64,000 nt of DNA from an uncultured bacterium (GCA_963825135.1 CAWGRW010000009.1:1728001-1792000); one strand, 5' to 3'. Shown: positions 5,402-60,861, counted from the first letter of the stretch. Program-made: numbers and translations. Notes: a model not told the origin generated them from the sequence alone.

Positions 5402-6250
5402 ATGGCTAAAAAACCGTCGGCTTCGGCAAAAGAAAACGGGACTAAACCCGCGAAAAAGAAAACCGGGCTAAAACTCACGTACATTCTCTATGAAAAGAAG
5501 GACAGGGTTGCGCGGGTGACGATTAACCGTCCGGAGGTGCGTAACGCCCTTAATTCGGAGGTCAGGGAGGAGCTTGCAATGGCCATTGAGGACGCGTGGC
5601 TCGACGATGAAATAGGGGTTATCGTCCTTACGGGCGCGGGCGGCAAGGCGTTTTCAGCCGGAGGGGACCTGTCCTGGATTGTCGATCCCAAGAAAAAGGT
5701 CGACGCAAAGTACATGCTAGTTCATTACAGGCTCGCGACGGCGATGAGGTGCTGCGGAAAACCGATTATCGCGCGGGTAGACGGTTATTGCGTCGGGGGT
5801 GGGAACGAGCTCAACATGCTCTGCGACCTTACGGTAGCTTCCGATACGTCGGTATTCGCGCAGGCGGGCCCGCTCGTGGGGAGTGCGCCCATATGGTACG
5901 GGCTCCAGCAGCTCCAGCATTCGGTCGGGGACAAGAAGGCGAGGGAGATCGTATACCTTTGCAACAGATACACGGCGCAGGAAGCCATGAACATGGGCTG
6001 GGTCAATAAGGTGGTGCCCCAGGATAAGCTAGACGAGGAAGTGGACGCATGGTGCCGGAGTCTTCTGGAGAAGAGCAGGCAGTCGCTCAGGATCGCGAAG
6101 CTGCAGATAAATTTCATATCCGATATGGCTTATCCTCAGATAACGCACGGGCTCGAGCTCGCGCGGTTCTTCATGAAGGCGCCCGAGATGGTAGAAGGCG
6201 CTACGGCGTTCCTCGAAAAGAGGAAGCCCGATTTCTGGGGCGTGGAATAA
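5402..6250 (+). CDS. Crotonase-family enzyme of the MenB/BadI/Oah-like branch
   Basis: INRPEVRNAL, AFSAGGD, GYCVGGGNEL, QAGPLVGS and C-terminal EG..AFLEKRKPDF. Confidence 0.8.
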   Translation: MAKKPSASAKENGTKPAKKKTGLKLTYILYEKKDRVARVTINRPEVRNALNSEVREELAMAIEDAWLDDEIGVIVLTGAGGKAFSAGGDLSWIVDPKKKVDAKYMLVHYRLATAMRCCGKPIIARVDGYCVGGGNELNMLCDLTVASDTSVFAQAGPLVGSAPIWYGLQQLQHSVGDKKAREIVYLCNRYTAQEAMNMGWVNKVVPQDKLDEEVDAWCRSLLEKSRQSLRIAKLQINFISDMAYPQITHGLELARFFMKAPEMVEGATAFLEKRKPDFWGVE

Positions 6251-6273
6251 TTATTCGTATTAAGGGGTGATCG

Positions 6274-6618
6274 ATGTCGAAAGAGGCGGAAATAAAGTTT
6301 CTGATAAAGCTCGACGATAATGGCGCGCCAGATGAGATATTCTGGAGCGCGAGCGATTCCGATCTCGAAGGCTTCGTGCCCTGCGATTCTCTCCTGATAT
6401 CGGTGTGGGACCGCTCGGAGAAGAATACGATGAGCGTCGATCTCTGGACTGACGACATGCAGGTGGGAGAGATGAACGCGCATTTCTATTTCACGCTGAT
6501 GAAGATGGCGGATACGTACGATAGAGCGACCAGCAACCGGGAGCTCTCGGACATGATAAGAAATTTCGCGGGCGAGTTCGCAAAGAGGGTTGAGGACTTC
6601 GCCGTGAAGCCCGGCTGA
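6274..6618 (+). CDS. gldC: GldC-family protein
   Basis: Pattern IKF.IKLD.N..P..I.W.ASD...LISVWD...DLWT.DM...EM..HFY.TL..MADTY.RAT recognised as GldC. Confidence 0.72.
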   Translation: MSKEAEIKFLIKLDDNGAPDEIFWSASDSDLEGFVPCDSLLISVWDRSEKNTMSVDLWTDDMQVGEMNAHFYFTLMKMADTYDRATSNRELSDMIRNFAGEFAKRVEDFAVKPG

Positions 6619-6634
6619 TATCCGGCCTCAATTT

Positions 6635-7564
6635 TCAGAAGGCCGATAACACCTCTCGCGCAAAGAATTTGAGCGTAGCGTGGTTCATGATATCAGAGAA
6701 GAATATCGTATACTTCGTTATCCCTTTCTCCTCGTTCTCTTCGATCTTCCTTATGCACTGGTCGGGTGTTCCGACTATGCCCAGTTTCTCCACGTCCCCG
6801 AAAAATCCGTACCTCATCTGAGCCTTGGGCAGCTTTTCGGCGAGCTCAGCTTTGTCTTTTGCGAGGACGCAAACCGTCTGCTGGGATATCTTGATATCGT
6901 CCGGGCTTCTGCCGACCGCACTGCAGTGTTTTTTTAGCACTTGGAGCTTTCTATCTATAGAGAGGGAGTGGTTCGCCGGGCAGTTCCACTCGTCAGCGTG
7001 CTCCGCTACGACCCTCAGGAGATGTTTTTCGCCGGCCCCTCCGATGATGACCGGGGGGTGGGGTTTCTGTACGGGCTTCGGGTTGCAGTAGGCGTCTTTG
7101 ATACGGTAATACCTTCCGTCGACGCCCGGCTTCTCTTCGGTCCAGAGAGCTTTTATGATTTTGACGGATTCGGCGAGCTGTTTTATTCTGGTCGCATGGT
7201 CCGGGAAATCATATCCGTATGCCCTGTATTCGGGCTCGAACCATCCGGCGCCTATCGCGAATTCGAGCCTGCCCATGCTTATAACGTCGAGGGTGGATGC
7301 CATTTTAGCGAGCAGGGCCGGGGGCCTGAACGAATTGCAGAGCACCATGGTGCCGAGCCTCACGTTCGATGTGACTGTGGAGAGGGCGGACATGAGAGTC
7401 CACGATTCGAATATATCCAGGTCGAGTTCCCCCATGCCTAGTATGTGGTCGTAGAACCAAACAGAGTGGTAGCCGAGCTCGTCGCAGAGCTCCGCCGTTT
7501 TTCTTATCTCCCCGAATTCAATCTTCTGCTGGCGCAGCATTACGCCGAAATCTATTCTGGGCAT
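6635..7564 (-). CDS. LLM-class (luciferase-like) flavin/F420-dependent oxidoreductase
   Basis: W.YDH, RLGTMVLCNSFRPPALLAKMASTLDVIS.GRLEFAIGAGW, PKPVQKPHPP and IGGAGEK. Confidence 0.9.
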   Translation of the reverse strand: MPRIDFGVMLRQQKIEFGEIRKTAELCDELGYHSVWFYDHILGMGELDLDIFESWTLMSALSTVTSNVRLGTMVLCNSFRPPALLAKMASTLDVISMGRLEFAIGAGWFEPEYRAYGYDFPDHATRIKQLAESVKIIKALWTEEKPGVDGRYYRIKDAYCNPKPVQKPHPPVIIGGAGEKHLLRVVAEHADEWNCPANHSLSIDRKLQVLKKHCSAVGRSPDDIKISQQTVCVLAKDKAELAEKLPKAQMRYGFFGDVEKLGIVGTPDQCIRKIEENEEKGITKYTIFFSDIMNHATLKFFAREVLSAF

Positions 7565-8397: not shown

Positions 8398-9042
8398 TCA
8401 ATAGCCGGGACCGGATGGATCAGGCTGAAGCACTCCCCTGAAGCTCACCCTGTGGATCGGACAGGGGCCGTACTTTCTGATAGCTTCCAGGTGCTCTTTC
8501 GTCGGATACCCCTTGTGCGACCTGAAATTATATTCGGGGTAGAGCTCGTGGTATTCGTCCATGATCTCGTCCCTCCTGACCTTGGCCACAATAGACGCAG
8601 CGGCGATCGAGCAGCACCTGGCGTCACCCCTTACGACTGTTTGCTGGGGAATGAGCAGGGAAGTCCTCTGATTCCCGTCGATCAGGAGGAAGTCGGGCCT
8701 TTTCTCGAGCTTGTTAACCGCTATCTCCATCGCAAGCAAAGAAGCCCTGAGTATGTTGATCCTGTCGATTTCCTGGTGTCCCACAATACCTATGGCAAGC
8801 GAGAGGGCGCTTGAGGCTATGCGGTCCAGCATTTCGACTCTTTGCCGATGGGTCAGTTTTTTGGAATCGTCGAGACCCTTGAGCGAGAATACTTCGGGAA
8901 GGATTACAGCCGCCGCCACTACGGGCCCCGCGAGAGGCCCTCTCCCGGCTTCATCTACCCCTGCGGGCGTCCTCCCCCCGGCCCAAATTCGTTTTTCCAT
9001 TTCGTGATCCGGGGGACTCATCTCCTCCTCCGTCAGCCCCAA
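8398..9042 (-). CDS. rnhB: Ribonuclease HII
   Basis: GVDEAGRGPLAGPVVAAAV, DSKKL, AASIVAKV.RD and HKGYPT. Confidence 0.96.
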   Translation of the reverse strand: MGLTEEEMSPPDHEMEKRIWAGGRTPAGVDEAGRGPLAGPVVAAAVILPEVFSLKGLDDSKKLTHRQRVEMLDRIASSALSLAIGIVGHQEIDRINILRASLLAMEIAVNKLEKRPDFLLIDGNQRTSLLIPQQTVVRGDARCCSIAAASIVAKVRRDEIMDEYHELYPEYNFRSHKGYPTKEHLEAIRKYGPCPIHRVSFRGVLQPDPSGPGY

Positions 9043-9104
9043 GCCCTGTTGTTTTAAGTTGACGCGGCGACACTCGATACTCTAGCTATCTGAAAAAGAC
9101 TATT

Positions 9105-9983
9105 TCAATTGATGATCCCGTAATCCGTGAGCGCTTTCTTGAGCTCAAGGTAATTATGCTCCGACATCCGGCAGAGGGGATACCTGTATTCGTAGGCGAT
9201 TCTATCCATCATGCTGAGAGCGGCTTTGACCGGGATGGGGTTTGTTTCGATAAAGAGCGCGTCGTTCAGGGGGAGGAGCCGGTAGTGCAGGTCCCTTGCC
9301 TTGTCGAACTCTCCCCTGATATACAATTCGTAGAGATCGGCCACGTCCCTTGGGGCTACGTTCGCGGTTACGGTTATGAACCCCCTGGCGCCTATAGCCA
9401 GGAGCGGGAAATTCAGCGCGTCCTCTCCCGAATAGAGCAGAAAGTCCTTACCGCAGAGGTAAAGTATCTTGCTCGCCTGCGTGAGCGACCCCGAAGCTTC
9501 CTTCACCCCGATTATATTCTTACAGTCTTTTGCGAGTCTCAATATTGTTTCGGGGTTCATGTTGACGCCCGACCTCCCCGGGATGTTGTAGAGAATAAGC
9601 GGGATGCGGACCTGTGAGGCTATCTGCTTGAAATGGAGATATAGCCCTTCCTGTGTAGGCTTGTTGTAGTAGGGCACGACCAGGAGGGCGGCGTCCGCCC
9701 CTATCTGCTCCGCGAACCTCGTCAGCCTGATTGCTTCTTTAGTGCTGTTAGAGCCCGTCCCCGCTATTACAGGGACTCGCTTTTTTACGGTTTTTACGGT
9801 TAACTCGATGACGTATTCGTGCTCTTCGTGCGACAGGGTAGGCGACTCTCCGGTAGTTCCGCACGGCACGATGCCGTGAGTGCCGTTTTCGATCTGGAAT
9901 TCGATAAGCTTCTTGAGCGCGTCTTCATCGATCGTGTCATTTTTAAAGGGAGTAACTATGGCGACCAGTGAGCCGTGAATCAT
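9105..9983 (-). CDS. dapA: 4-hydroxy-tetrahydrodipicolinate synthase
   Basis: GTTGES, PYYNKP, LYNIPGR, GVKEASG and ETNPIPVK. Confidence 0.96.
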   Translation of the reverse strand: MIHGSLVAIVTPFKNDTIDEDALKKLIEFQIENGTHGIVPCGTTGESPTLSHEEHEYVIELTVKTVKKRVPVIAGTGSNSTKEAIRLTRFAEQIGADAALLVVPYYNKPTQEGLYLHFKQIASQVRIPLILYNIPGRSGVNMNPETILRLAKDCKNIIGVKEASGSLTQASKILYLCGKDFLLYSGEDALNFPLLAIGARGFITVTANVAPRDVADLYELYIRGEFDKARDLHYRLLPLNDALFIETNPIPVKAALSMMDRIAYEYRYPLCRMSEHNYLELKKALTDYGIIN

Positions 9984-13970: not shown

Positions 13971-14645
13971 ATGCTGATGCCGGTAAAGAGATTCTCAAAA
14001 AGAGAGGCAATCGAGTTCGGATGGCGGACTATGAGAGCCAACCTGGCTATTTTTATCGTCTTCCTCGTCGTCTCGATGGTGGCGGGTTTTTTCTTCAGCG
14101 GATTCGCGGGACTATTTGAAAAACGCCTGCCTTTTTTATCCCTTATTTTCAACCTCGGGTATATCCTGCTGACCATTGCGGTAAATATCGTCGGCATCAA
14201 GATTGCCTTGAAGTTCTGTGATAATGACGAACGGGCGATATCGGAGGTAATACCATTTACGCCCGCTTTGTTCCTGAGGTTTGCCGCCGGATATATTCTC
14301 TACAGTCTATTGATCGTGGCGGGCTTCGTATTGCTGATAGTCCCCGGTCTGATCTTCATGGTCAAATATCAATACGTGATCTATTTCATTGCCGACAAGG
14401 ATACGGAAATCGGCGAAGCGTTTACAAAGAGCTCCGCTCTCACAAACGGGATCAAGTGGGAGCTGTTCTTGTTCCTGATACTGTTATCGTTGATCAACCT
14501 GGCCGGTCTCATATGCTTCTTCGTGGGCTTATTTGTCACAATACCCGTTACAATGGTCGCGATGGCGTACGTTTATAGAAAGTTGTCAGGCCCCTCGGCG
14601 GCCGAAGCGCTCGACCCGTTTCAGTCGCCTCATCAAGCGGTCTGA
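13971..14645 (+). CDS. Integral membrane protein (DUF975/YciC-like)
   Basis: Multiple TM helices; LLIVPG, EAFTKS..LTNG.KW and VGLFVTIP...AYVYRKL. Confidence 0.7.
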   Translation: MLMPVKRFSKREAIEFGWRTMRANLAIFIVFLVVSMVAGFFFSGFAGLFEKRLPFLSLIFNLGYILLTIAVNIVGIKIALKFCDNDERAISEVIPFTPALFLRFAAGYILYSLLIVAGFVLLIVPGLIFMVKYQYVIYFIADKDTEIGEAFTKSSALTNGIKWELFLFLILLSLINLAGLICFFVGLFVTIPVTMVAMAYVYRKLSGPSAAEALDPFQSPHQAV

Positions 14646-14674
14646 ATCTAAATCATGGAGAGGTAAATCCGGAA

Positions 14675-15121
14675 TTGGGCAGGGTCTACAAGCACACGCA
14701 AATCGGTTATGTGATGTTTCTGATAATCGGGACAGGGCTTTATCTACTGTTGAACTTCTTCTATCTGCACGGGTTCATTATCGTATTCGTCGCCGTTTTT
14801 GTATTGCTCGCCGTCTGCCTGGTTTTGTTTGCCGCATTGAGGGTGGAAGTTGACGACAGGGAAATCTCGGTTCGTTTCGGAATCGGGATCATCCGCAAGA
14901 AATTTCCGGTAAGCGGGATCGAGTCTGCCGCGATAGTCAGGAACCCCTGGTATTACGGATGGGGGATAAGGAAAACGCCCGATGGCTGGCTCTACAATGT
15001 ATCCGGATTAATCGCGGTCGAGCTGCGGATGAGGAGCGGGGAAAGATTCCTGATCGGGACCGACGACCCCATGGGGCTCCTGAATGCGGTGCAAGGGGTT
15101 ATTCCCGGAAAAAGCGTGTGA
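14675..15121 (+). CDS. Hypothetical membrane protein (two TM helices plus PH-like C-terminal domain)
   Basis: YKHTQIG, WYYGWGIR, WLYNVSG and IGTDDP; TTG start uncertain. Confidence 0.65.
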   Translation: MGRVYKHTQIGYVMFLIIGTGLYLLLNFFYLHGFIIVFVAVFVLLAVCLVLFAALRVEVDDREISVRFGIGIIRKKFPVSGIESAAIVRNPWYYGWGIRKTPDGWLYNVSGLIAVELRMRSGERFLIGTDDPMGLLNAVQGVIPGKSV

Positions 15122-15134
15122 AGCGGATTACATC

Positions 15135-15692
15135 ATGGACGATCAATTCAAATTAAGGATAGAGGGCGGTATCGAGCTCGAACTCCTGTGTGAGGACCAT
15201 GCAGAGGAGTTATTCGAGCTTACTGACAGGAACAAAGGGTATCTCCGGAAGTGGCTGCCCTGGCTCGACAGCAACAAATACATTCAGAACACCATTGATT
15301 TCATTCAATACAGCAGTAAACAATATGAAGAGAATAACGGGTTACAGTTCTGTATCCGGTCCGGCGGGGGTTTGGCCGGGATGATCGGCTTTCACAGGGT
15401 GGATTGGCTGAATCATTCGACAAGCATCGGATACTGGCTTGCGGAGGATTTTCAGGGTAAAGGGATTATGACCGCATCGTGCCGGTGTCTTCTGGACTAT
15501 GCTTTCGGCAACCTCGGAATGAACCGTGTCGAAATCAGGTGCGCTACCGAAAACAAGCGCAGCAGGGCGGTTCCGGAAAGGCTGGGGTTCACCGAAGAGG
15601 GGACCATCCGGCAGGCCGAGTGGTTGTATGACCACTATGTGGACCACATCGTCTACGGTATGCTGAGGGAGGAATGGAAGTGCAGGATATGA
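15135..15692 (+). CDS. RimJ/RimL-family GNAT N-acetyltransferase
   Basis: LRKWLPW, IGYWL...FQGKGIMT, N.RSRAVPERLGF.EEG. Confidence 0.9.
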   Translation: MDDQFKLRIEGGIELELLCEDHAEELFELTDRNKGYLRKWLPWLDSNKYIQNTIDFIQYSSKQYEENNGLQFCIRSGGGLAGMIGFHRVDWLNHSTSIGYWLAEDFQGKGIMTASCRCLLDYAFGNLGMNRVEIRCATENKRSRAVPERLGFTEEGTIRQAEWLYDHYVDHIVYGMLREEWKCRI

Positions 15693-15693
15693 A

Positions 15694-15731
15694 AAACCCT
15701 CCTAGATCCTATTAAGGAAATAAGAGGGTTT
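15694..15731. terminator. Imperfect hairpin between convergent genes
   Basis: AAACCCTC...GAGGGTTT outer stem with an inner TCCT/AGGA stem, right after the GNAT stop. Confidence 0.45.
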
Positions 15732-15761
15732 AAGAGAAGCAAAAGGCAAGATGTAGTTAAG

Positions 15762-15842
15762 CTAGGAAAAAAGCACTATTATTAATCCGGCGAATATCGT
15801 CGAATATAGCACCAAATCCGCAAACCCGTACGTTTTATTCAT
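15762..15842 (-). CDS. Putative 26-aa hydrophobic small protein
   Basis: GGAGAGG SD upstream of ATG; MNKTYGFADLVLYSTIFAGLIIVLFS. Confidence 0.5.
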   Translation of the reverse strand: MNKTYGFADLVLYSTIFAGLIIVLFS

Positions 15843-15980
15843 TAACTCATCCTCTCCTAGAATCATAGACTATAAATACATAGTCTCTCAAGGTTTAATT
15901 TCTGATAATTTAAAAGATTGATCGCGGGGATTGCTATCATACTTTAGTATTACTACTTAAGTTAGCGGTGTCAGGCAGGA

Positions 15981-16808
15981 TCAGGGCTTTTTGGATATGA
16001 TGAGGTGATTGGCAGCCTTTCCCTCGTCGATCAGCTGGAGGTATGTGTCGAAATACTCGATATGGTAATCGGTGTTTTCCCTGCCCTGTTCCTTTACGAT
16101 TTCCTCATAGTGTTTCTTGTACGCGTCGCCCCATTTCTTGTTCTGAACCCTGAAGTCCGACACATACTCGGTAATCTCCTCTATCTGAAAGCCCGCTTCC
16201 TTGAGCATGCGGCGGTAATTCGGAAGAGAGTCGTAGTACTGAGGGATCAGGTATCCGCGCGCCATTTTTCTTGTTACTTCCGGATCGTCGGGCATGTCGA
16301 ATGTCCCGCTCAGAAACGCCCATGTTCCGTCCTTCTTCAGTACCCTGAGCACTTCCCTGAAAAGCCCGACCTTGTTCTTGAATACATTCATTACGTTTAA
16401 ACTTATCGCGATGTCGAACGTGTTATCGGGGAAGGGGGTCTTCATCGCGTCCCCGAGATGAAATTCCGCTTGTCCCTCGAGACCCGATTTTTTAGCCAGC
16501 TTCACCGACATATCCACACCCACGTTTGAAATATCGACACCTGCTATTCTGCACCCGGTCTTGCTCGCAATGTACAGGGCCGGGCCGCCGACGCCGCTTC
16601 CTATGTCGAGCATGTAATTATTTTCACTGATACGAAGCCTTCTTACGAGGTCGTCAAGGTACCTGGGAGTGGTGAACGATTGCTGACCGATGTCGTTTTC
16701 CTTGCCCCAGATAGAATCCCTTATTAGCCTGTTGGCCGGGCTGTCTATCTGATGAAGTATCGAATAATCGACGCCGATTTTTTTCTCCTTCATCTTTTTA
16801 TCCTCCAT
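15981..16808 (-). CDS. Class I SAM-dependent methyltransferase
   Basis: LDIGSGVGG, GVDIS, GDA...PFPDNTFD and RVLKKDG. Confidence 0.85.
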   Translation of the reverse strand: MEDKKMKEKKIGVDYSILHQIDSPANRLIRDSIWGKENDIGQQSFTTPRYLDDLVRRLRISENNYMLDIGSGVGGPALYIASKTGCRIAGVDISNVGVDMSVKLAKKSGLEGQAEFHLGDAMKTPFPDNTFDIAISLNVMNVFKNKVGLFREVLRVLKKDGTWAFLSGTFDMPDDPEVTRKMARGYLIPQYYDSLPNYRRMLKEAGFQIEEITEYVSDFRVQNKKWGDAYKKHYEEIVKEQGRENTDYHIEYFDTYLQLIDEGKAANHLIISKKP

Positions 16809-16902
16809 GGAATCGCTTCGGAAGCAGTCATTATGGGAGGTTGTGCCAATGGAATATTATCCGATCCCGATTACGCTATAAAGGTCTAATTTTAGTAATA
16901 TA

Positions 16903-17667
16903 TTATTTTGCGCTCATCCCTCCGTCCACGGAGAGCATCGCTCCGGTAATGAACCTGATTTTATCGTCGCATAGAAACAAGACCGCGCGGGCTATTTCCT
17001 CGGGCTGTGCCAGGCGTCCTATGGGGTGTACAGAGATATAACGCTTTTCACCGAGTTCCCTGTCCCCCCATTCCTCAAACAGCGCGTCCATCATTGGGGT
17101 GTATATGGTCCCGGGGCAGACGGCGTTTACCCTGATCCCCTTATCCGCGTATTCGAGCGCCATGCTTCTCGTGAGCTGGTTCACGGCTCCTTTGGAGGCG
17201 CTGTAGGCGGCAAAGCCCGCCGGGGACGCCTTTAATCCCAGTATCGACGAGTTATTCACTATAGCGCCCTCCCCCTGCCTGATCATGTGGGGTAGCGCGT
17301 GCTTGGACATAAGATAAACGCCCTTAACGTTGATATCGAAAGTCTCGTCCCACATGCCGGTATCCGTTTCGTGTGTGTTCGATTTGTAGCAAACCCCTGC
17401 GTTATTGAAGAGTATGTCTATGCGGCCGTAGCTGCGCATTGTGCTTTCTACGGTCTTTACGCAGTCCGACTCCTTTGAGACGTCGCTTAGGATGTAGCTG
17501 ATTTCAATACCGTCTTCTTCCATCTCGTCGGCCGCTTCCTTTAATGTTTTTTCGGTTCTGCCCGTAATGACTACGTTTGCACCCTCTGCGGCAAACAGGC
17601 GGGCTGTCGCCTTTCCGATCCCCGTACCGCCCCCCGTGATTATGGCCGTCTTGCCTTTCAGTTTCAT
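16903..17667 (-). CDS. Short-chain dehydrogenase/reductase
   Basis: TGGGTGIG, NNAG, YSASK and RVNAVCPG. Confidence 0.93.
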   Translation of the reverse strand: MKLKGKTAIITGGGTGIGKATARLFAAEGANVVITGRTEKTLKEAADEMEEDGIEISYILSDVSKESDCVKTVESTMRSYGRIDILFNNAGVCYKSNTHETDTGMWDETFDINVKGVYLMSKHALPHMIRQGEGAIVNNSSILGLKASPAGFAAYSASKGAVNQLTRSMALEYADKGIRVNAVCPGTIYTPMMDALFEEWGDRELGEKRYISVHPIGRLAQPEEIARAVLFLCDDKIRFITGAMLSVDGGMSAK

Positions 17668-17738
17668 TTCGTGTCGTCGGTTTATTTCCGGATGCTAATA
17701 ATTATGGGGGAGATTAAGGCGTTATCAATATAGGGCTG

Positions 17739-51228: not shown

Positions 51229-52042
51229 TTACCGCGTCCTGGAGAAAGCCTCGTCGAGGAGGTTAATCTGCTTCTCCGACAGACGCCATCCGGACGCCCC
51301 GCAGTTCTCTATCGTTCTCTCGACGCTGTCCGATTTCGGAATTGCTATGACGTTCTCACGGGAGGTGCACCAGTTAAGCGCGACCTGCGCCGTCGTTTTC
51401 CCGGTCTCAAGGGAAATATCTTCGAGCACCCTGGTTCTTTCTGACGACATGAAACGGGGCCTCGATGCGAGGGTGCCGTCGTCAAGGGGCGTGTATGCGA
51501 GGACCGTTATCCCGTGTGCGAGACAGTAGGGGAGTAAATCCTTTTCGATCCCCCTCTCGTTCAGGTTGTAAAGCACCTGATTTGAAACTATCGGCGTGTG
51601 CCTGAGCGCGGCCCTCGGCCTCTCTCAGGTCGTCGAGGTCAAAGTTGCTCACCCCGATGAATCTTACGATTCCCCTCTCGACGAGCGTCTCCATGGCGCG
51701 CATGGTTTCACTCATCGGATAAGACGAGTTGGGCCAGTGGACCTGGTAGAGGTCGATGTGCTCCGTGCCGAGCTCGGAGAGGCTCCCCTCGGCGGCCCGC
51801 AGCACGTCGTCGTAGCCGAGACGCCTGCCCGATACCTTGGTTGCGATGAATACCCTGTCCCTCATCCCCCTGACCGCTTTGCCGACTACGTGCTCCGTGC
51901 CATATCCCTCGGCGGTGTCTATTAAAGTCGCACCGAGCTCGATCCCTTTCCGCAGAGGCTCGATGCCGCCCCTGTATCTCCAGGTCCCGAGCCCGATCTC
52001 CGGGATCAATACCCCTGTATTCCCAAGCTCTTTTAATTCCAT
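51229..52042 (-). pseudogene. Aldo/keto reductase split by a one-base frameshift (or sequencing error)
   Basis: N-half (IGLGTW, IDTAEGY, IDLYQVHWP, IGVSNF) and C-half (YNL, AYTPL, AQVAL.W, IPKS) lie in different frames; removing one C from CCC at 51612-14 restores ...EAEAALRHTPIVSNQVLYNL. Confidence 0.85.
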
Positions 52043-52119
52043 AGAGCGCAAACCCCTATATTTCGGGCTGGTCCGATTCTCCGGGAGAGGTTCTAACCTC
52101 GCTTAAGGCTCTCCTCTGT

Positions 52120-52446
52120 TCAATGAACGGTTACGCGGAAGAGTCGACGGGGGCCCACTGTCGTGCCCACCGAACATAACGTAGTTCCGGGAGCAACACC
52201 CTTGAACCCTAGCCCGTCCGGTGTATTGACTAACCTGACTATATTCGCATCATCGCAAATAGATACGAGTGCCGGGCAGACAACTATGCCGGATTTACAG
52301 ACTTTAAAGATTTCCCCTGCCTGCAACTCAACCTCATGCGGCTGGTCAAGCCCTGTTGGGTCCCCGGCCTTCACATCACCGGCGAACATAATAAGGACCA
52401 GAAATCCCGTAGCTATAATTATTGCAGTCTTCATGCTGACCCCCAT
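52120..52446 (-). CDS. Secreted Cys-containing hypothetical protein
   Basis: GGAGG SD, signal peptide (..VKA|G), four Cys in the mature part. Confidence 0.7.
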   Translation of the reverse strand: MGVSMKTAIIIATGFLVLIMFAGDVKAGDPTGLDQPHEVELQAGEIFKVCKSGIVVCPALVSICDDANIVRLVNTPDGLGFKGVAPGTTLCSVGTTVGPRRLFRVTVH

Positions 52447-52565
52447 TATGAGAACCCCCTCCTACAACTAGTTTCTATAATATATCATCTATAGAAAAAT
52501 GACTGAAAAACGCTTTCTTTCAAGGTATCGGCGGAAGTCTCAATTCGAGCTGTTTTTTCTCATAA

Positions 52566-52655
52566 TCGGCCTTGCAACAATTTCAAAATATTGTAGATTT
52601 ATACGTCCGGCCGGGGTGTAGCTCAGATTGGCTAGAGCGTTGCGTTCGGGACGCA
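52566..52655 (+). repeat. Left 90-bp direct repeat: tRNA-Pro promoter plus 5' half of the tRNA (attL-like)
   Basis: Identical to 58346-58435; the tRNA part starts at 52612 and stops after the anticodon stem; imperfect similarity extends about 20 bp further upstream. Confidence 0.93.
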
Positions 52656-52791
52656 AATTGTGATTAAGAAAAGCATCATTGCTGCAGTATCTTAAGTAGG
52701 CATTTCAACCAAATTTCCCTTCCATGTAACCATTCACTAACCAAAGACACCGGCTATATGTCCAGATACCTCAACCTTATGGAGGCGACGT

Positions 52792-52872
52792 ATGGCGAGT
52801 CTACAGCGAAAGAAACGTACAACTAGTTGGCTTAATTGTCATATTCGAAAATTCATTCCTATCAGTCGGTAA
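52792..52872 (+). pseudogene. Possible N-terminal stub of a tyrosine integrase
   Basis: GGAGG SD plus MASLQRKKRTTSW..., 26 codons, about 135 bp inside attL and pointing inward. Confidence 0.35.
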
Positions 52873-52931
52873 TCGGGCTAACTCTCTGGAGAAACCTCAA
52901 AGTACGTATAACAGAGTCTGAACTAAGAATA

Positions 52932-53094
52932 TTGTCATAATTGAATGACAAATTTTGTCATTTCCGTCGTTACTCGAATAGCATTAAGTCGCGCTACTTT
53001 TCTAGTAATTTAAAGGAGTTATATAATATTTAACGATAATTCCGGCTAGTATAGTTCATTATTGGCTTTTAAATAAGATGGCATGAATTTTGAT
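52932..53094 (+). promoter_or_regulatory. Sigma54-like promoter with upstream TGACA/TGTCA palindromes
   Basis: Perfect AATGACAAA-T-TTTGTCATT at 52944-62; TGGCAT-N5-TTGAT at 53079-94 (-12 is GA instead of GC). Confidence 0.5.
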
Positions 53095-53157
53095 ACTAAG
53101 TAAGAATACAATTAAAAATCGTAAACTATCTGACAAATCATTCTTTGGAGTAAGTAT

Positions 53158-56100
53158 ATGTTTCAGACTCTCGATTCTGAGTTAAATGCTGTAAGTAGAA
53201 ATAAAAGATTATTGCTTTCTGATCATCTGTTCTCATGCGTTGTAATACCTGGTGATGATGCATCTGTAGAATTCATTAATTTATGTAATACAATATATCA
53301 GCATCTGGACCAAACGCGAATACAAGTTAATTTTTTGCCAGAAATAGATAAGCAAGCTGGATCATACGAGCAGCTATTCGATCAATTAGTTGATAACTGC
53401 ATTTTTGTTATTGCGATGAAAGGGGACTTTGAAAAGAGTTTATCATACGAGTATGGATATTTGAGAGGCATAAGAAAGCCAATTATTGTAATAAATACCA
53501 CAAATAATCCAACACCCGCCGATACAAAACATGATAGGGCCAATCATGATAATCATGAATCTACTCATAAAGAGATCTTGAATAAATTCATCGATTACAT
53601 TGACCTAGGTTCGGAATCACAACATGATCTTCCGGATCAATTTATAAACAAATTCGATCAAATCCTCTTAGAAATAATGGAAGGGTCTTTAATTAACTCC
53701 GATAAGATCATTAATGTAAATCAAGAAGTACCATTTAATGATATCAAAAATCTGATAAAGCGGATTTTAAAATATTATATATTACGGAATGATTACGGTT
53801 TACATGAGATCGATGAGATATTTAAATCGATTGATAAATTAGATGCAGATCAACATAAGAATCTCCCTTCGTTAGTACTAAACTGCTTACTTGCTCTTTC
53901 AATTGATTTATTGAGAGCACAAAATGATAAGAATCAAGTTCATGATATAGCAGAAAAGTGCATATCTATGTGTCAAACAATATTGGATAATGAAAAAGAT
54001 CTGGTATTTAAAGCAGTTATAGAGAAAAAGTTGGCTGATTTGCTGTTAATTTCCCCAGACCCGGATAATGAGGTTGGGAATCTTGAAAGAGCTGTAGATC
54101 TTTATAAAAAATCTAAAGAGTATTTAACAATAGATGACTATCCTCATTATTTAGTTTCAATAAATAATAATCTTGGTGTGGCGTTGAATGATTTATTCCG
54201 AATTCTAGGAGAATCAAAGTATCTGAATGAAGCGAATGATTACCTTTCTAACCTGGTGGCAGATCAAATTTCTTCAAATTCTAATTATGCGTTAGTTAAA
54301 TATAATCTTGGTATTACCAGGTTGGGGTTTGCTTCAGTGGTTGGTGCTCAATATGATTATTATGATGCACTTGAATGCTTCAATAGCTTTCTAATGGATT
54401 CTTTTTACCTCCATAATAATGAAGAATTTTTGGATATTGAAATCAACATTGGGTCTATTTATTTTACAATTGCTCAAGAGCAAAACGATCAACTATGTTG
54501 CGAGAGATCAATAGGAGTATTTCAAAATATTCTAGGTTTATGCTCTACTCAAATTCATGAAATGGAGTACGGAATTATTAACCGCAGTCTCGGTGACATT
54601 TATAGCTTTCTTGACGCTTTAAGACCAGATAATATTGAAACGAAGCTGAATATTATTGGATTTTATGAAGAAGCTTTAAAAATATATACATTAGATAAAT
54701 TCCCAGATGAATATTGTTGTATAAGGTTCAAATTAGCAGATGCACTAAGTACACTTAGGCGACGACACGATTTGGAAAGTGCGTCAGAAATCTTCAATCA
54801 ACTTTTGAGTACTCCAATTCTTGAGTCTTACAACTACAATTATGCTCTTATTCAAAAGAAACTTGCCAGCTTATACTTAAGGTTAGCCAAAATGGATATG
54901 AGTAAGAATTATCACTCTATGGCTTTAGAGAGTTACGAAGATGCATTGTCTCAATTCTCTTCAATGAAAGACGAATACGAGATTGCTGATCTAAAAAAGT
55001 ATTTGGGAGATTTGTACATTCTCGATGCGAAGGAGAAAAGTGATTTCTCTTTATATCTAAAAGCTACAGAGGCTTATCAAGATGCACTTAGTTATTTTAC
55101 AAGAGATAAGTTCCCATTGGTTTTTGCCTCACTCAAGATGAAACTCGGTGATCTAAATAGAATGATCGCAGAATATCAGAATTCTATCGATGATTATAAT
55201 GATGCTATTCGTGCTTATGAGGAATCTCTTAATATTTATAATTCTTATGAATTTCAAAAAGAATCATGGGAAGTGCATAAGAAGATTAGCGATACATATA
55301 TGACCTTGGGAGACATCAAATCTAATTCACAATATCCAGATGAGGCGATCACTTATTATACTGAGGCTCTAAAATTCCTAACAAATCAAAGCTCACCGAT
55401 TGAAAAGGGGAATGTTCTGAGAAAACTAGGTAATGAGCATGTTCAATTTTCTAGAATTGTATTCCGTACTCAAAATTTAAAACATGCTCTCGAATATTAC
55501 GAGAAAGCCCTACTGTATTACAATCCTGACGAGTTTCCATCCGAATATGAAGAGATAAGAATTAATATGGGAACAAATTTCAGGATATTAGCAGTTCTTG
55601 AAAAAGAGAGGGGCAACTTGAAAGATGCAATCTCATTTTATGAGAGAGCTGCTGAGTTTATTTCAATTAACAACAATCCAGATAAATACGCTTCACTGAT
55701 GGTCGCAATTGGATCCATATACAAACAACTATCGCAGATTGAAAATGAAGTAGTTAATAGCAAAAAAGCTATCGAGTATTATATCAATGGATTAGTTGTT
55801 TATAATCCACAAGATCATCCTCATGAGCATGGTACTTTACAAAAACATCTGGGGTTAACATATATAGATATAGCCGAGAAAGAGAATTATCTCGAAAATA
55901 TAAGAAATGCATATAAAGCATTTGAAGCATCTCATAAAATATATTCAGTCGAAGACAATCCCGAAGATTTGTTATTTGTGGAGAGTAAATTGTCGGAACT
56001 GAGTAGAAAGATTTCAAATGGAGACAACAGCACTTCAAATCAAAATGTGCTTCAGGATTCAAGCTATGATAATTTGACGACGCTTGATCCAATCAATTCT

Positions 56101-57873
56101 GCTCTCAACAATCATGAAATCGCTGAACAAATGATGACACTTGACCAACCGGCTGAATTTAAAGATATGGACTCCAATAGAGAGGGCTTGAAAGAAGTAA
56201 GAGTTGAAACAGAGGAGTTCAGTCCATTAAATTTGGAAATAGACTTAACTAATAACGAATTAAATGATGATTCAGAATCTATTGAACGCCTAGATCAGCT
56301 CATCAGTGAGACATCTCCAGTGGAATCGCCAAAGCTTCATGCATACCTAAATTATAAGATTGGCAATGCTTATCAAAATATTGGCAAATCTCACGGTTCC
56401 TCACAAAATTACAAAGAAGCAATAAGATATTATGCTCAAGCCTTAAAATATTATACATATGAGGAATACCCATATGAATATGCTTGTATAAATGGCGAAC
56501 TTGCAACTACTTATAAATATCTAGGCGACTCATCTGGCGATTTAAAAAACTATGAGGTTGCAATAGAATTATACAATGAGTCATTAGGACTAATTAAGAT
56601 TGATGAGCATCCCATTGAATTCGGGAATTATAACCTAAATATGGGACTCATTTTTAGTGAATTTAGCAGAATTCTTCAACTCAAAAAGCATCATGAAAAT
56701 GCGATACATGCATATAATGAAGCACTAAAGGTTTTTGAATCGAGCGAATATCCTTATGAGTATGGATTAATTCAGATTAAGCTAGGTTCCGTTTATAGCA
56801 TGCTTGCTTATTATGAATATTACTCCTATAACTGTCTAAAATCTGCTGAAGCTTACAAGCAAGCACTAACCGTATACGACTTCGAGAATTTCCCTAATGA
56901 ATTTGCAGAGATTCAAAAAGAACTGGGCATCTTATATTTGAATTCTGGTTTAAATGATATGGATAATAATAATTTCTTGTTATCTGTAAAATCATTCGAA
57001 GAAGCACTAAAACACTATAACTTAGAAAATTACCCAGCGGATTATGGGTTAATAAAAATAAAAGAAGCTAAATCTTATGAATATTTATCCAAAGCTTCCG
57101 AGGAATCATATTATCTGAGACAAAGTATCGATGCTTATAAAGATGCAATTAAATATTATACCCATGAGACTTATCCAGATGTATTTGCTTCAATAGCATT
57201 AAGTTTAGGCGATGTTTATCATAATATCGGTAAGCTAGAAAACACAGACATAGATCAAAGAATTGCAATTGAATACTATAAGCAGGCTCTTATGGTTTAT
57301 AATTCAATTGAGTTTCCTCTAGAGTATGCAACTACAGAATATAATATAGGAATGGCATACTTAATGCTTTCAGATTCTGGGCAACTAAAAGAAAATATCA
57401 TTAATGCGATAAATTCCCTCAAAGCATCATCAAAAGTCTATTCGAAAATAGGGCTATCTGATCAGTATGGAAGTTGTGAGAATAATCTTGGCATAGCGTA
57501 TATGCAAATTGCGAATGAGCCGGAAGGTAGTGCTTATCTGTCGTTAGCTCAAGAATGTTTTGAGAAGGCGATTAAAGTCAGGACTTGTGAAAAACAGCCG
57601 CTCGAATTTGCCAATACGCAGTTTAATTTAGGGGCTTTATTCATGACACTCTATAAGAACGAGAAAGAAACAGAATATGCCGAAAGGTCTGTACAAGCTT
57701 ATGAAAAGGCTCTGCAAATCTACATCGTAGATAAATTCCCGGCTGAATACAACACAATACAAAATAATCTTTCATGGATGAATCAAACACTTGCTAAAGA
57801 AAAAGATGAAAACAAGTCTTATGATGATAGCTGGACTTACCTACGAAAGTCTACTCCGAATAATTTAAATTAA
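53158..57873 (+). CDS. Large TPR-like repeat protein with an N-terminal nucleoside-deoxyribosyltransferase/TIR-like domain
   Basis: N-terminal CIFVIA...SYEYGYLRGIRKPIIVI; about 26 repeats of about 47 aa (A..YEEALK.Y....FP.EY...Q..LG..Y) in two arrays split by an acidic linker; GGAG SD. Confidence 0.85.
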   Translation: MFQTLDSELNAVSRNKRLLLSDHLFSCVVIPGDDASVEFINLCNTIYQHLDQTRIQVNFLPEIDKQAGSYEQLFDQLVDNCIFVIAMKGDFEKSLSYEYGYLRGIRKPIIVINTTNNPTPADTKHDRANHDNHESTHKEILNKFIDYIDLGSESQHDLPDQFINKFDQILLEIMEGSLINSDKIINVNQEVPFNDIKNLIKRILKYYILRNDYGLHEIDEIFKSIDKLDADQHKNLPSLVLNCLLALSIDLLRAQNDKNQVHDIAEKCISMCQTILDNEKDLVFKAVIEKKLADLLLISPDPDNEVGNLERAVDLYKKSKEYLTIDDYPHYLVSINNNLGVALNDLFRILGESKYLNEANDYLSNLVADQISSNSNYALVKYNLGITRLGFASVVGAQYDYYDALECFNSFLMDSFYLHNNEEFLDIEINIGSIYFTIAQEQNDQLCCERSIGVFQNILGLCSTQIHEMEYGIINRSLGDIYSFLDALRPDNIETKLNIIGFYEEALKIYTLDKFPDEYCCIRFKLADALSTLRRRHDLESASEIFNQLLSTPILESYNYNYALIQKKLASLYLRLAKMDMSKNYHSMALESYEDALSQFSSMKDEYEIADLKKYLGDLYILDAKEKSDFSLYLKATEAYQDALSYFTRDKFPLVFASLKMKLGDLNRMIAEYQNSIDDYNDAIRAYEESLNIYNSYEFQKESWEVHKKISDTYMTLGDIKSNSQYPDEAITYYTEALKFLTNQSSPIEKGNVLRKLGNEHVQFSRIVFRTQNLKHALEYYEKALLYYNPDEFPSEYEEIRINMGTNFRILAVLEKERGNLKDAISFYERAAEFISINNNPDKYASLMVAIGSIYKQLSQIENEVVNSKKAIEYYINGLVVYNPQDHPHEHGTLQKHLGLTYIDIAEKENYLENIRNAYKAFEASHKIYSVEDNPEDLLFVESKLSELSRKISNGDNSTSNQNVLQDSSYDNLTTLDPINSALNNHEIAEQMMTLDQPAEFKDMDSNREGLKEVRVETEEFSPLNLEIDLTNNELNDDSESIERLDQLISETSPVESPKLHAYLNYKIGNAYQNIGKSHGSSQNYKEAIRYYAQALKYYTYEEYPYEYACINGELATTYKYLGDSSGDLKNYEVAIELYNESLGLIKIDEHPIEFGNYNLNMGLIFSEFSRILQLKKHHENAIHAYNEALKVFESSEYPYEYGLIQIKLGSVYSMLAYYEYYSYNCLKSAEAYKQALTVYDFENFPNEFAEIQKELGILYLNSGLNDMDNNNFLLSVKSFEEALKHYNLENYPADYGLIKIKEAKSYEYLSKASEESYYLRQSIDAYKDAIKYYTHETYPDVFASIALSLGDVYHNIGKLENTDIDQRIAIEYYKQALMVYNSIEFPLEYATTEYNIGMAYLMLSDSGQLKENIINAINSLKASSKVYSKIGLSDQYGSCENNLGIAYMQIANEPEGSAYLSLAQECFEKAIKVRTCEKQPLEFANTQFNLGALFMTLYKNEKETEYAERSVQAYEKALQIYIVDKFPAEYNTIQNNLSWMNQTLAKEKDENKSYDDSWTYLRKSTPNNLN

Positions 57874-58027
57874 CTTATATAGACATCGACTCTCTGAATC
57901 TCGCTGATCGGTTATGTGTTTGCCGCAGTTGACTCCTCAACATAAAGGAGAAGCCTCACCTATCTTATGGATTTAAATGTAGAGAAGTCATTCACTTGCA
58001 GCTCATATATCCAAAAACCTGGTGCCA

Positions 58028-58053
58028 GGGTTCGAGTCCCGTCGTCCCCGCCA
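58028..58053 (+). other. 3'-end fragment of a different tRNA (Asp-like), probable att scar
   Basis: GGGTTCGAGTCCCGTCGTCCCCGCCA = T-loop, acceptor 3' strand, G73 and CCA; no 5' half upstream. Confidence 0.7.
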
Positions 58054-58351
58054 GTCGCTAATGAACATTCCCAAATATTTTATTGATAAAAAGGATAAGA
58101 GGGAAATTGATCCATTAGAAGAGCTTAAGAAGAAGAAAACAAGAAGGAGGGCCATGTTATGACTTGATATATGCATAATAATGTGATTTTGTGTTTACTT
58201 GTATAAGGGATCTGATTATAGTTTTGATCAAAAGGGCATATAGTTTCATCTAACCAGCGTCCAACGGATTGGTTAGAAATATAGGGAAATTGCTGTGTTC
58301 CAACGTGCTAAAAGGAGCCTCGGATTGAGCTGTTTTTCTTCACGGTCGGCC

Positions 58352-58379
58352 TTGCAACAATTTCAAAATATTGTAGATT
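58352..58379 (+). promoter_or_regulatory. Sigma70 promoter of tRNA-Pro (second copy at 52572-52599)
   Basis: TTGCAA-N16-TAGATT followed by a GC-rich stretch just before the tRNA. Confidence 0.65.
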
Positions 58380-58391
58380 TATACGTCCGGC

Positions 58392-58469
58392 CGGGGTGTA
58401 GCTCAGATTGGCTAGAGCGTTGCGTTCGGGACGCAGAGGCCGCCGGTTCAAGTCCGGCCACCCCGACCA
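58392..58469 (+). tRNA. tRNA-Pro(CGG)
   Basis: Full cloverleaf: CGGGGTG/CACCCCG acceptor, GCTC/GAGC D-stem, TTGCG-TTCGGGA-CGCAG, GCCGG-TTCAAGT-CCGGC, A-CCA. Confidence 0.97.
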
Positions 58470-58569
58470 TTCTTACTTCTATCAGTCCTTCGGGATAGCC
58501 TGTAACCATCGAATTTTCGACAAAATCTGAATAACCAATCCCATTCATGGACGGATCGCTCGCACGAAG

Positions 58570-58878
58570 TCAGTCTTGGGAGTTCGATTTGCTGCTTTTG
58601 ACCGTTGTCCCCTCAGCAGGGGCAGGAGTAGGAGCAGGCGTAGGTTGTAATTGGCGTTCGCTTGAGTTCGACTTGCTGCCTTTGACCGTTGTCCCTTCAA
58701 CGGGCTCAGGGGCGGGAGTAGGAGCTGGTGTAGGCGTAGGTTGTAATTGGCGTTCGCTGGTGTTCGACTTGCTGCCTTTGACCGTTGTCGGATTGGCATA
58801 TGCCATATGTACCGTCAAATGAGCTGCAAAAATCCCTAAAAATAGAAATACGGAAAATAGATATATTAGACGCTTCAT
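58570..58878 (-). CDS. Secreted 102-aa protein with three TTVK(G/S)SKSN repeats and Pro/Thr linkers
   Basis: GGAG SD before ATG 58878; signal peptide ending AYA; repeats visible at DNA level. Confidence 0.8.
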   Translation of the reverse strand: MKRLIYLFSVFLFLGIFAAHLTVHMAYANPTTVKGSKSNTSERQLQPTPTPAPTPAPEPVEGTTVKGSKSNSSERQLQPTPAPTPAPAEGTTVKSSKSNSQD

Positions 58879-58990
58879 TTTAATAACTCCTTGAAACCGA
58901 GTTTGATACTTGTAGCCTTGCAAATATCGTATGAGCACCTATTTACCCTGTCCGGCCCATAAATTTGAAAATGACTCACTGCCCGAAAAA

Positions 58991-59034
58991 GGGACTGAGA
59001 GGCCGCCGGTTCAAGTCCGGCCGCCCCGGCCATT
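58991..59034 (+). repeat. Degenerate copy of the tRNA-Pro 3' half (attR-like)
   Basis: 40/44 identity to 58428-58471. Confidence 0.85.
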
Positions 59035-60277: not shown

Positions 60278-60301
60278 CATGACCATTAAGAATTTTCTTC
60301 C

Positions 60302-60622
60302 TTATTTAGCTGCATCATCCGGCATATCGCCACCGGGCGCCTCGCCTTCCGTGGACTTATCCGGGGTCCCCGTATCTGCTCCGGAACCGTTGGTCGCTTC
60401 GTCCGGCATATCGCCGCCGGGCTGCTCGCCCTGGGTGGCCTTGTCGGCAGCGCCGGTAGCGGCTCCCGAACCGTTGGTCGCTTCATCCGGCATATCACCG
60501 CCGGGCTGCTCGCCTGCGGGGTCGTTCTGCGCTACAGCGGATACACTGCTGAAAAAGGAATTTCCACCGAAGGAAAGTCCCGTCACCAACAATATAGCAA
60601 ACAAAATAGCAATCACTCTCAT
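60302..60622 (-). CDS. Secreted acidic 106-aa protein with three GE(Q/A)PGGDMPD repeats
   Basis: GGAGG SD, signal peptide, 28-aa repeat period, own terminator. Confidence 0.8.
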   Translation of the reverse strand: MRVIAILFAILLVTGLSFGGNSFFSSVSAVAQNDPAGEQPGGDMPDEATNGSGAATGAADKATQGEQPGGDMPDEATNGSGADTGTPDKSTEGEAPGGDMPDDAAK

Positions 60623-60685
60623 ATCTTCAAAACCTCCTGATTTTTTTTACCGACCGAGTTCCCCGGCCAGCTTAGCTAATTATAA

Positions 60686-60701
60686 TGCAAATTCTGTACC
60701 A
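60686..60701 (-). promoter_or_regulatory. Sigma54 -24/-12 promoter
   Basis: Minus strand TGGTAC-AGAAT-TTGCA, 64 bp upstream of the 60622 start. Confidence 0.7.
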
Positions 60702-60861
60702 AGAAAACATGGACTTAAAGATTTAGTTTTAACGGCCTGTTGCATCATATAGCTTATATTCGGGGCAAAAATATAGCTCGCGGATGCGTTAAAAACCACA
60801 TCAAATTGTGTAAAATGGCACATTGTATAATGTTTCGGTTCATAGTTCGGCATGGCTCGAA

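Follow-up and report, generated by a model that had tools for sequence, protein, structure and literature searches.

The window analysed here is a 64,000-nt stretch of DNA from an uncultured bacterium (GCA_963825135.1 CAWGRW010000009.1:1728001-1792000; genome G000), which contains an AT-rich island at a tRNA-Pro gene. A single large gene in this island encodes a protein of 1571 amino acids (aa; P0001), in which an N-terminal alpha/beta domain precedes two long arrays of tetratricopeptide (TPR)-like repeats. We tentatively favor a reading of this protein as a glycosidase-TPR effector-sensor in conflict that works without a nucleoside triphosphatase (NTPase), has Glu98 as its candidate catalytic residue and is carried on a recent tRNA-Pro element; we consider this the best explanation, plausible and still far from secure. 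Directly observed are the architecture of the protein, its homology network, the conserved Glu, the lack of an NTPase, the mobility of the island, and an open reading frame (ORF) that has been kept open across species and metagenomes.

The ORF runs on the plus strand from an ATG start over 4716 nt. Across 53.0-58.0 kb, the GC content of the 5.8-kb island is 0.31-0.35 vs. 0.50-0.56 on both sides, and the only other ORFs of at least 60 aa in the island are two antisense ORFs of 102 and 67 aa, next in size, that overlap the gene. Promoter-like sites number 25 (27.5 expected) and terminator-like sites 4 (2.6 expected), and neither count is informative. A hidden Markov model (HMM) grown from six repeat units of the protein itself recognizes 26 units with a strict period of 47 aa (141 nt) in two arrays of ~15 and 11 units, and the repeat family within the gene is also visible at the DNA level with spacings of 141, 423, 564, and 705 nt, i.e., multiples of 141. 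According to curated models the repeats are TPRs: Pfam matches on the protein are confined to TPR-type families, with TPR_12 at 78.2 bits (cut-off 30.1), TPR_2 at 46.7 (27), and TPR_8 at 40.1 (25.7), and aa 181-500 yield weak helical-repeat matches only. Throughout its 1571 aa, the protein contains no Walker A motif (GxxxxGK[ST]). Searches with Pfam, NCBIfam, and PADLOC likewise identified no NTPase family in it, which places it outside the STAND/NLR-like class with its central P-loop NTPase. The first-pass annotation, made from the sequence alone, had proposed the sole large gene of an AT-rich island, ~15 plus ~11 repeats of 47 aa, an acidic linker at ~56010-56280, and the lack of a P-loop/STAND ATPase. 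These claims stand, with the repeat units falling at aa 286-940 and 1061-1566 and the repeat-free gap at aa 941-1060 matching the linker.

The N-terminal domain (N-domain) probably belongs to the superfamily of nucleoside 2-deoxyribosyltransferase (NDT)/TIR-like domains. We assign it there because sequence profiles point in this direction, the predicted fold being generic. Judged by sequence comparison, the direct evidence for the family is weak and the transitive evidence strong. The Pfam family Nuc_deoxyrib_tr (PF05014) scores 12.8 bits on aa 1-200 (E 0.13, cut-off 28.8) and aligns aa 78-119 with model positions 60-103, and searches of the PDB with a single sequence or a five-sequence profile returned chance-level matches only. 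An exhaustive phmmer search with the N-domain against 1.84 billion representatives found five proteins at E<=1e-3, three of which are near-identical; the remaining matches are P0006 (E 2.4e-7) and P0007 (E 1.4e-4). P0007 is part of a larger clade with the motif RPNVxFEFGFLKG (the RPNV clade). Its 63 clusters have lengths of 299-2000 aa, stem from anammox bacteria, Omnitrophica, Chloroflexi, and archaea, and nearly all combine the N-domain with TPRs. Precomputed matches in the RPNV clade include PF10137, the TIR domain of CAP12/Pycsar effectors, in 9/63 and PF05014 in 4/63 clusters; in our own scans, the PF10137 cut-off (24.7 bits) is passed only by P0009 (30.7 bits), with P0007 and the members at L003, L004, L005, and L033 at 20.5-23.9 bits. 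The link to this clade is made by hhalign, which aligns it with the island proteins and their core chromosomal paralogs (described below) at 98.7% probability (E 1.8e-16, 108 columns).

A 17-sequence family profile searched against the PDB at E<=10 matches only 4hx9, 9gn4, and 1f8x, all of which are NDTs (E 0.09-0.75). This profile alignment places the family Glu (Glu98) onto Glu98 of Lactobacillus-type NDT chains, which we take to be the catalytic nucleophile; NDT Asp72 has no acidic counterpart in it. Among 22 family members the Glu98 column holds Glu in 18, Gln in two, Ala in one, and Gly in one. In alignment A3 (17 sequences), G100 and G104 are invariant and K107 is present in 16/17, forming a conserved block E-x-G-x-L-x-G-x-x-K that precedes strand 4.

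Two AlphaFold2 models (predicted local distance difference test scores of 59 and 64) both contain a five-strand domain with alternating strands and helices at aa 25-175, in agreement with the alpha/beta domain that the first-pass annotation had suggested. In a Foldseek comparison of the model, MilB, NDT, and BcmB ranked first (E 4-8e-4), SARM1 chains were also matched, and all named neighbors in the ESM Atlas fall into TIR_2, NDT, or CAP12 clusters (0.88-0.89), which we use as a lead only. The modeled fold is, however, that of a generic flavodoxin-like sandwich, and structure prediction does not settle the family. A prediction of two N-domain copies as a homodimer from alignment A3 scored 0.30 vs. 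a mark of 0.42 and is counted neither way.

The island was acquired horizontally and has this gene as its sole cargo. The island junction lies directly after GGGACGCA and is identical in G000 and in the congeneric genome G007, where locus L001 harbors a 10.4-kb version of the island at the same junction. L001 encodes a tyrosine-type integrase (8571-9659; Phage_integrase 103.8 bits) that adjoins the displaced tRNA fragment, an orthologous protein of 1573 aa with 93% identity, and as further cargo an SGNH/GDSL hydrolase (15009-16265, minus strand) and an ATP-grasp enzyme (16508-17719, plus strand), neither of which is found in the island of the window. Positions 52553-52814 correspond to L001 8337-8593 and positions 52819-57957 to L001 9663-14806 (96.1% identical). 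Hence, the island in the window is the G007 island minus precisely the integrase ORF and the two downstream genes, and a tyrosine integrase is absent from it. The site is empty in 4/4 further genus genomes examined upstream (G009, G002, G004, and G003; G001, G005, G006, and G008 lay outside this comparison): the aldo-keto reductase gene is ~220 nt from tRNA-Pro in G009, G002, and G004, and only orf108 lies between them in G003. The downstream flank is present in 9/9 other genus genomes. Metagenome contigs that join 52042 to 58350 occur in 2/4 runs (X2 and X4) and possibly derive from other species.

Tested as an island in a tRNA gene (tDNA), the locus shows the tDNA with a same-orientation fragment, empty sites, and foreign composition, and lacks an internal integrase. 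With the Islander-type islands, as characterized in the sections of the source used here (PMC4383910), it shares the intact tRNA at one end, the displaced 5' fragment at the other, and a crossover in the anticodon arm, and in the G007 version also the tyrosine integrase beside the fragment. It differs in its 5'-fragment configuration, which is a minority (159 islands with a displaced 5' tDNA fragment vs. 3760 with a 3' fragment in the same sections; PMC4383910), and in the loss of the integrase from the copy in the window.

Between G000 and G007, the number of synonymous substitutions per site (dS) is 0.064 for the gene and 1.0-1.3 for the flanking genes for UbiA, an M3 peptidase, and COX15. 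Therefore, the island reached G000 and G007 long after their divergence, and the transfer is recent. Over its full length, the gene has a ratio of nonsynonymous to synonymous substitutions (dN/dS) of 0.47, with individual segments at 0.39-0.62, vs. 0.06-0.08 for flanking genes. The gene is thus constrained, but loosely, with purifying selection acting on the ORF. It is intact, at 1571-1573 aa, in G000, G007, and P0002, and among the indels listed (12 of 20) from contigs of four studies, the only one in the ORF interior is an in-frame 6-nt indel. The habitats in which the gene occurs are sediments and soils. The coordinates of the gene, its domains and the island are collected in Table 1.

Table 1. 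Features of the tRNA-Pro island and of the NDT/TIR-like + TPR gene (positions in the window).
Feature	Position	Strand	Basis or remark
Left direct repeat: copy of the tRNA-Pro promoter region and 5' half of tRNA-Pro(CGG), ending exactly after GGGACGCA	52536..52655	+	120 nt, 92% identical to 58316-58435
Integrase-proximal remnant; integrase ORF of G007 cleanly missing, junction 52814/52819	52553..52818	+	Alignment to L001
Displaced 5' tRNA-Pro fragment (acceptor, D arm, anticodon arm)	52612..52655	+	In register with 58392-58435
AT-rich island body	52656..58315	.	GC 0.31-0.41
Gene for the NDT/TIR-like + TPR protein (P0001)	53158..57873	+	93% aa identity to the 1573-aa L001 ortholog, 69% to the 1572-aa P0002
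Flavodoxin-like alpha/beta domain at the N terminus (aa 1-180), NDT/TIR-like by sequence affinity	53158..53697	+	
Codon of Glu98 (YEYGYL, aa 97-102), candidate catalytic residue	53449..53451	+	Aligns with NDT Glu98; Glu in 18/22 family members
TPR-like array 1, aa 286-940, ~15 units of 47 aa, some degenerate	54013..55977	+	Pfam, repeat HMM
Acidic low-complexity linker, aa 941-1060 (120 residues)	55978..56337	+	No positive-scoring repeat unit
TPR-like array 2, aa 1061-1566, 11 units of 47 aa	56338..57855	+	Pfam, repeat HMM
Right direct repeat: promoter region and 5' half of the intact tRNA	58316..58435	+	120-nt repeat
Intact tRNA-Pro (anticodon CGG), integration target	58392..58469	+	ARAGORN; Rfam tRNA 62.8 bits
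Extra copy of the tRNA-Pro 3' half, 44 nt, second classical downstream insertion slot	58991..59034	+	91% identical to 58428-58471

The genus also possesses a core form of the gene. An N-domain profile search of genomes found matches in 22/61 genomes of the order (G000 counted) and in 8/9 other genus genomes, with an island-type match (E about 1e-70) only in G000 and G007. The other genus matches are proteins of 1390-1520 aa with the same architecture, encoded at host-like GC (0.55-0.63), which have TPR_12 matches and in several cases TPR-S matches. Their context is fixed: genes for a major facilitator superfamily (MFS) transporter, an 825-aa HEAT-repeat protein and a small ORF precede the paralog, followed by a 180-aa ORF, hisS, a glycosyltransferase gene, and DUF3943 genes. 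The position between the HEAT-repeat gene and hisS is shared by the five other genus genomes compared (G007, G004, G009, G003, and G001). In a maximum-likelihood tree of 22 N-domains, the island group forms a long branch that joins P0006 and the core paralogs with support of 95/97, and the RPNV clade is separate (100/99).

The core paralog of G000 itself lies in C9:428000-447000 (L019; 8756-12928, minus strand), encodes 1390 aa, and carries Gln at the Glu position; it is divergently paired with a HEAT gene (14140-16629, plus strand, 829 aa). In comparisons of G000 with five other genomes of the genus, identity is 56-58% for the core paralog and the adjacent HEAT protein, vs. 73-89% for hisS, the glycosyltransferase, the MFS transporter, and one DUF3943 gene; a second DUF3943 gene reaches only 44-45% in two genomes, and two unannotated flanking ORFs are at 59-80%. 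A PADLOC match of the HEAT neighbor to HEAT-ARM_XIII (89.5 bits) was discounted as defense evidence because repeat proteins cross-match. The core paralog and the HEAT gene may constitute a chromosomal two-gene system, and the fast evolution together with the TPR-S matches leaves room for a conflict role of this core pair, too. In another genus, that of G011, a Thermodesulfobacteriota chromosome encodes a 3092-aa member with the N-domain and very long TPR/ARM-like arrays (L002, 9983-19261, plus strand), and its HEAT and MFS neighbors are the same as those of the core paralogs. Open frames of other relatives reach up to 3774 aa.

Outside these genomes, a metagenome scan returned two loci. One of them, L034, was dropped as spurious, the match being 26 residues within a radical-SAM gene. 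On the other contig (L033), a TIR_2-like gene (4498-5097, minus strand) and an RPNV-clade gene for an N-domain+TPR protein (5570-7420, plus strand) are arranged back-to-back. The TIR_2-like gene scores 25.5 bits vs. a cut-off of 28 and has weak PADLOC spbK/ThsB matches; the pair looks like a type VIII Thoeris system by analogy, and a TIR neighbor was not seen at the other RPNV loci with context (L003, L004, and L005). Relatives are labeled Candidatus Dadabacteria or Thermodesulfobacteriota. An archaeal origin, as the label Nitrososphaeraceae of P0008 (90% identity, on a 2470-nt contig) would imply, was set aside, as the island group clusters in the tree with core paralogs of bacteria (95/97); the label is presumably a binning artifact of AT-rich DNA.

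The architecture has already been described, and for relatives of this kind it has been validated; the protein resembles known single-protein anti-phage sensors. In E. coli TIR-II systems, as presented in the parts of the study drawn on here, TIR and TPR occur in one protein or two, nearly 30% also have an ATPase, and the systems, which comprise a single gene or a few genes, protected E. coli in plaque assays and were more widespread than any other new TIR system (PMC11350192). Like the present protein, they can unite a glycosidase-type (TIR) domain and TPRs in one polypeptide, and ~70% of them lack an ATPase (PMC11350192). Compared by description only, TIR-II differs in its canonical TIR domain, whereas the N-domain lacks a match to TIR models and leans toward NDT/CAP12-TIR, and in size, our protein being 1571 aa long and containing 26 of the 47-aa repeats.

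A second counterpart is type VIII Thoeris, for which the consulted portion of the preprint describes a TIR protein that makes canonical cyclic ADP-ribose (cADPR) and ThsI, which combines a "CMP hydrolase" domain with TPRs and is activated by cADPR (bioRxiv 10.64898/2025.12.03.692087). Excerpts of another preprint describe BcTpr (415 aa), in which a MilB-like N-glycosidase domain at aa 1-189 is followed by TPRs; its E86A and N82A variants lost NAD+ depletion and defense, and 29/78 BcTpr-type genes have no TIR neighbor (bioRxiv 10.1101/2023.05.26.542521). In ThsI/BcTpr, a MilB/CMP-hydrolase-like domain with a catalytic Glu is followed by TPRs; the architecture and the MilB-like model of the present protein, with its candidate Glu, agree with this, and MilB is among the top structural matches. 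Moreover, the BcTpr P81/N82/E86 spacing, P(-5) N(-4) E(0), recurs in the RPNV clade, which is homologous to the N-domain. Unlike the present protein, which is about four times longer, ThsI/BcTpr has ~415 aa and is usually encoded beside a gene for a cADPR-making TIR.

The CAP12/Pycsar TIR domains of PF10137 and the enzymes of PF05014 (DNPH1, MilB, BcmB, and NDT) resemble the modeled N-domain in the five-strand alpha/beta fold and in a Glu at the position of NDT Glu98, and distant relatives of the N-domain attain the PF10137 threshold or come close to it; the differences are that both thresholds are missed and that NDT Asp72 finds no acidic partner. CAP12 and PycTIR are switched by cyclic-nucleotide-binding domains, not by TPRs. 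SARM1 (ARM repeats - SAM - TIR) likewise joins an alpha-solenoid to a TIR-superfamily NADase without an NTPase, with the solenoid as an autoinhibitory ligand sensor, an analogy that the BcTpr authors draw for their protein in the excerpts cited above (bioRxiv 10.1101/2023.05.26.542521). With Avs/STAND (NLR-like) proteins, the present protein shares the order of an N-terminal effector, here a candidate, and a C-terminal TPR sensor array, while the defining STAND NTPase is absent. New here are the very large size of this variant with its 47-aa repeats, an N-domain that falls short of every library threshold, the carriage on a 5'-fragment tRNA-Pro island, and a related core paralog in which Gln naturally replaces the Glu.

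We propose the following mechanism, which TIR-II, ThsI/BcTpr, and SARM1 are described to use. The gene would be what remains of the cargo of a small integrative element, which recently entered the anticodon region of tRNA-Pro(CGG) and lost its integrase here. The TPR solenoid would hold the glycosidase domain off until a trigger is bound; this trigger might be a protein of the invader or else a nucleotide signal, for instance a molecule of the cADPR type. The N-domains might then assemble and hydrolyze NAD+ or a nucleotide at its N-glycosidic bond, and this cleavage could starve the invading element or arrest the cell.

Several observations weigh against this reading. No library model reaches its threshold on the N-domain, PF10137 (cut-off 24.7) has no match at E<=10 on aa 1-200, on aa 1-400, or in the whole genome, and the PADLOC check advised by the first-pass annotation yielded no N-domain match. 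The Glu98 column is not Glu in 4/22 members, including the core paralog of this genome (Gln), and Ser94 occupies the position, four residues ahead of the Glu, at which BcTpr has an essential Asn (N82). Neither the island nor its flanks contain a TIR gene in G000 or G007; the two clear TIR_2 genes of the genome, at C9:798718 and C7:5616, are far from the window at C9:1728001-1792000. Relatives in viral-contig, plasmid, and phage collections were not found, and a dN/dS of 0.47 fits relaxed constraint, too. Finally, the nearest clade consists of core, syntenic paralogs with host GC in 8/9 other genus genomes, whose neighbors are HEAT-repeat, MFS, and hisS genes and not a defense island. A stable non-defense context of homologs is what the first-pass annotation had named as refuting its claim of a candidate defense or sensor protein, and the nearest clade has such a context. 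The part of the claim that holds is the superfamily as best fit, the TPR arrays, and the lack of an NTPase.

Core syntenic paralogs and a replaceable Glu are the reason to consider a non-catalytic ligand-binding or scaffold protein with a lineage-specific role, in which the N-domain would bind a nucleotide or partner in a SLOG-like manner, the TPRs would organize a complex, and the island copy would be a hitch-hiking or duplicated member of a housekeeping-like family and not an immune gene. We regard this main rival as unlikely, with a good deal in its favor: paralogs of the same architecture are syntenic across the genus and, with HEAT/MFS neighbors, in L002/G011; the island group falls within the core-paralog clade; Q, Q, A, and G take the place of Glu while G100 and G104 do not vary and K107 hardly does; and the protein has no defense-library match. 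However, the Glu is kept by the island copy and all close relatives, and mobile carriage with a dS 16-20 times below that of flanking genes is typical of accessory conflict genes. The core paralogs and their HEAT neighbor are themselves fast-evolving, and related architectures have experimental anti-phage activity, according to the portions cited (PMC11350192; bioRxiv 10.64898/2025.12.03.692087, 10.1101/2023.05.26.542521).

The gene might instead serve the mobile element, in competition between elements, in excluding rivals or phages at entry, or as an addiction-like module, and be a remnant here after integrase loss. It is the only gene common to both island versions, the SGNH-hydrolase, ATP-grasp, and integrase genes being dispensable, and its interspecies spread at the same attachment (att) site is very recent; TIR-II is present in Caudoviricetes, for which inter-phage competition has been suggested in the sections used (PMC11350192). 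We nevertheless consider a service to the element improbable, since viral, phage, and plasmid collections hold no relatives that we could find and the ORF is still intact after the element was immobilized. Its mechanism overlaps with that of the effector-sensor, the main difference being who benefits.

Acidic residues after strands 1 and 3 (GDD at aa 32-34 and D90), read from sequence and model, could suggest a signaling scaffold whose N-domain is a receiver or pseudo-receiver of the CheY type. We consider this very unlikely: Response_reg is not matched in Pfam scans of 11 family members, all sequence-profile affinities lie with NDT or CAP12-TIR, and the E-x-G-x-L-x-G-x-x-K block before strand 4 is an NDT-type feature. 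That the ORF is a functionless, decaying passenger is scarcely credible, for although its dN/dS is far above that of flanking genes and the element is degraded, with its integrase lost, a 4716-nt frame persists in DNA of 32% GC, its length hardly differs (1571-1573 aa) between G000, G007, and P0002, the last with 69% identity, dN/dS is <1 in every segment, and no frameshift is found in the ORF among the indels listed.

Further observations concern the surroundings of the island. The tRNA-Pro gene is an insertion hotspot on both sides, and the spacer downstream of it differs in length among relatives. Between tRNA-Pro and the 44-nt copy of its 3' half lies an ORF of 122 aa (58570-58938, minus strand) with a signal-peptide-like start and 84/96-nt tandem repeats that encode TTVKGSKSN-SERQLQPTP(A/T)P units, and the content of this slot differs in every relative. 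Downstream of the same tRNA-Pro, G009 carries another insert of ~3 kb and 36-42% GC (L035, ~14000-17000). Near the right end of the island, a 130-nt segment (57958-58089) is peculiar to this island compared with G007, and at ~58020-58055 a string seen by eye resembles a tRNA T-arm and acceptor 3' end and terminates in CCA; ARAGORN and Rfam make no call there, and the string may be the relic att site of another element. Upstream, the aldo-keto reductase gene (51229-52051, minus strand) is split into two overlapping frames of 189 and 115 aa and is a single 273-aa ORF in L001; contigs of run X1 have a 1-nt deletion at 51610 in this gene. The split reflects either a frameshift that made the gene a pseudogene or a mistake in the assembly. 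Farther downstream, a 157-aa ORF (60279-60752, plus strand) matches no Pfam family and includes, at 60312-60499, an 84-nt unit repeated three times in tandem (77-90% identity).

The locus is a clean case of the 5'-fragment tDNA islands, with integrase-bearing and integrase-less forms in sister species. The Glu-bearing mobile copy and the Gln-bearing core paralog within one genome provide a natural experiment on whether these proteins are enzymes or sensors, and the same pair can address how immune and cellular genes exchange roles. If the effector-sensor is active, it would be a nucleotide-glycosidase effector under the direct control of a very long solenoid of TPRs, without a STAND ATPase or the TIR partner of type VIII Thoeris, and it would extend the validated TIR-II/ThsI architectures to an uncultured lineage (relatives labeled Candidatus Dadabacteria/Thermodesulfobacteriota) and to archaea. 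A bolder and rather unlikely reading is that a genus-wide chromosomal family of giant NDT/TIR-like+TPR proteins, with a core copy paired with a co-evolving HEAT-repeat gene, spawned a tRNA-Pro-hopping copy that acts as a stand-alone immune receptor, whose 26-repeat solenoid would recognize invader proteins and switch a Glu98-dependent nucleotide/NAD+ glycosidase without an NTPase or a TIR signal generator. If this were true, a core cellular module would have been turned into portable immunity, or the reverse, and the receptor would represent the simplest NLR-like logic yet described.

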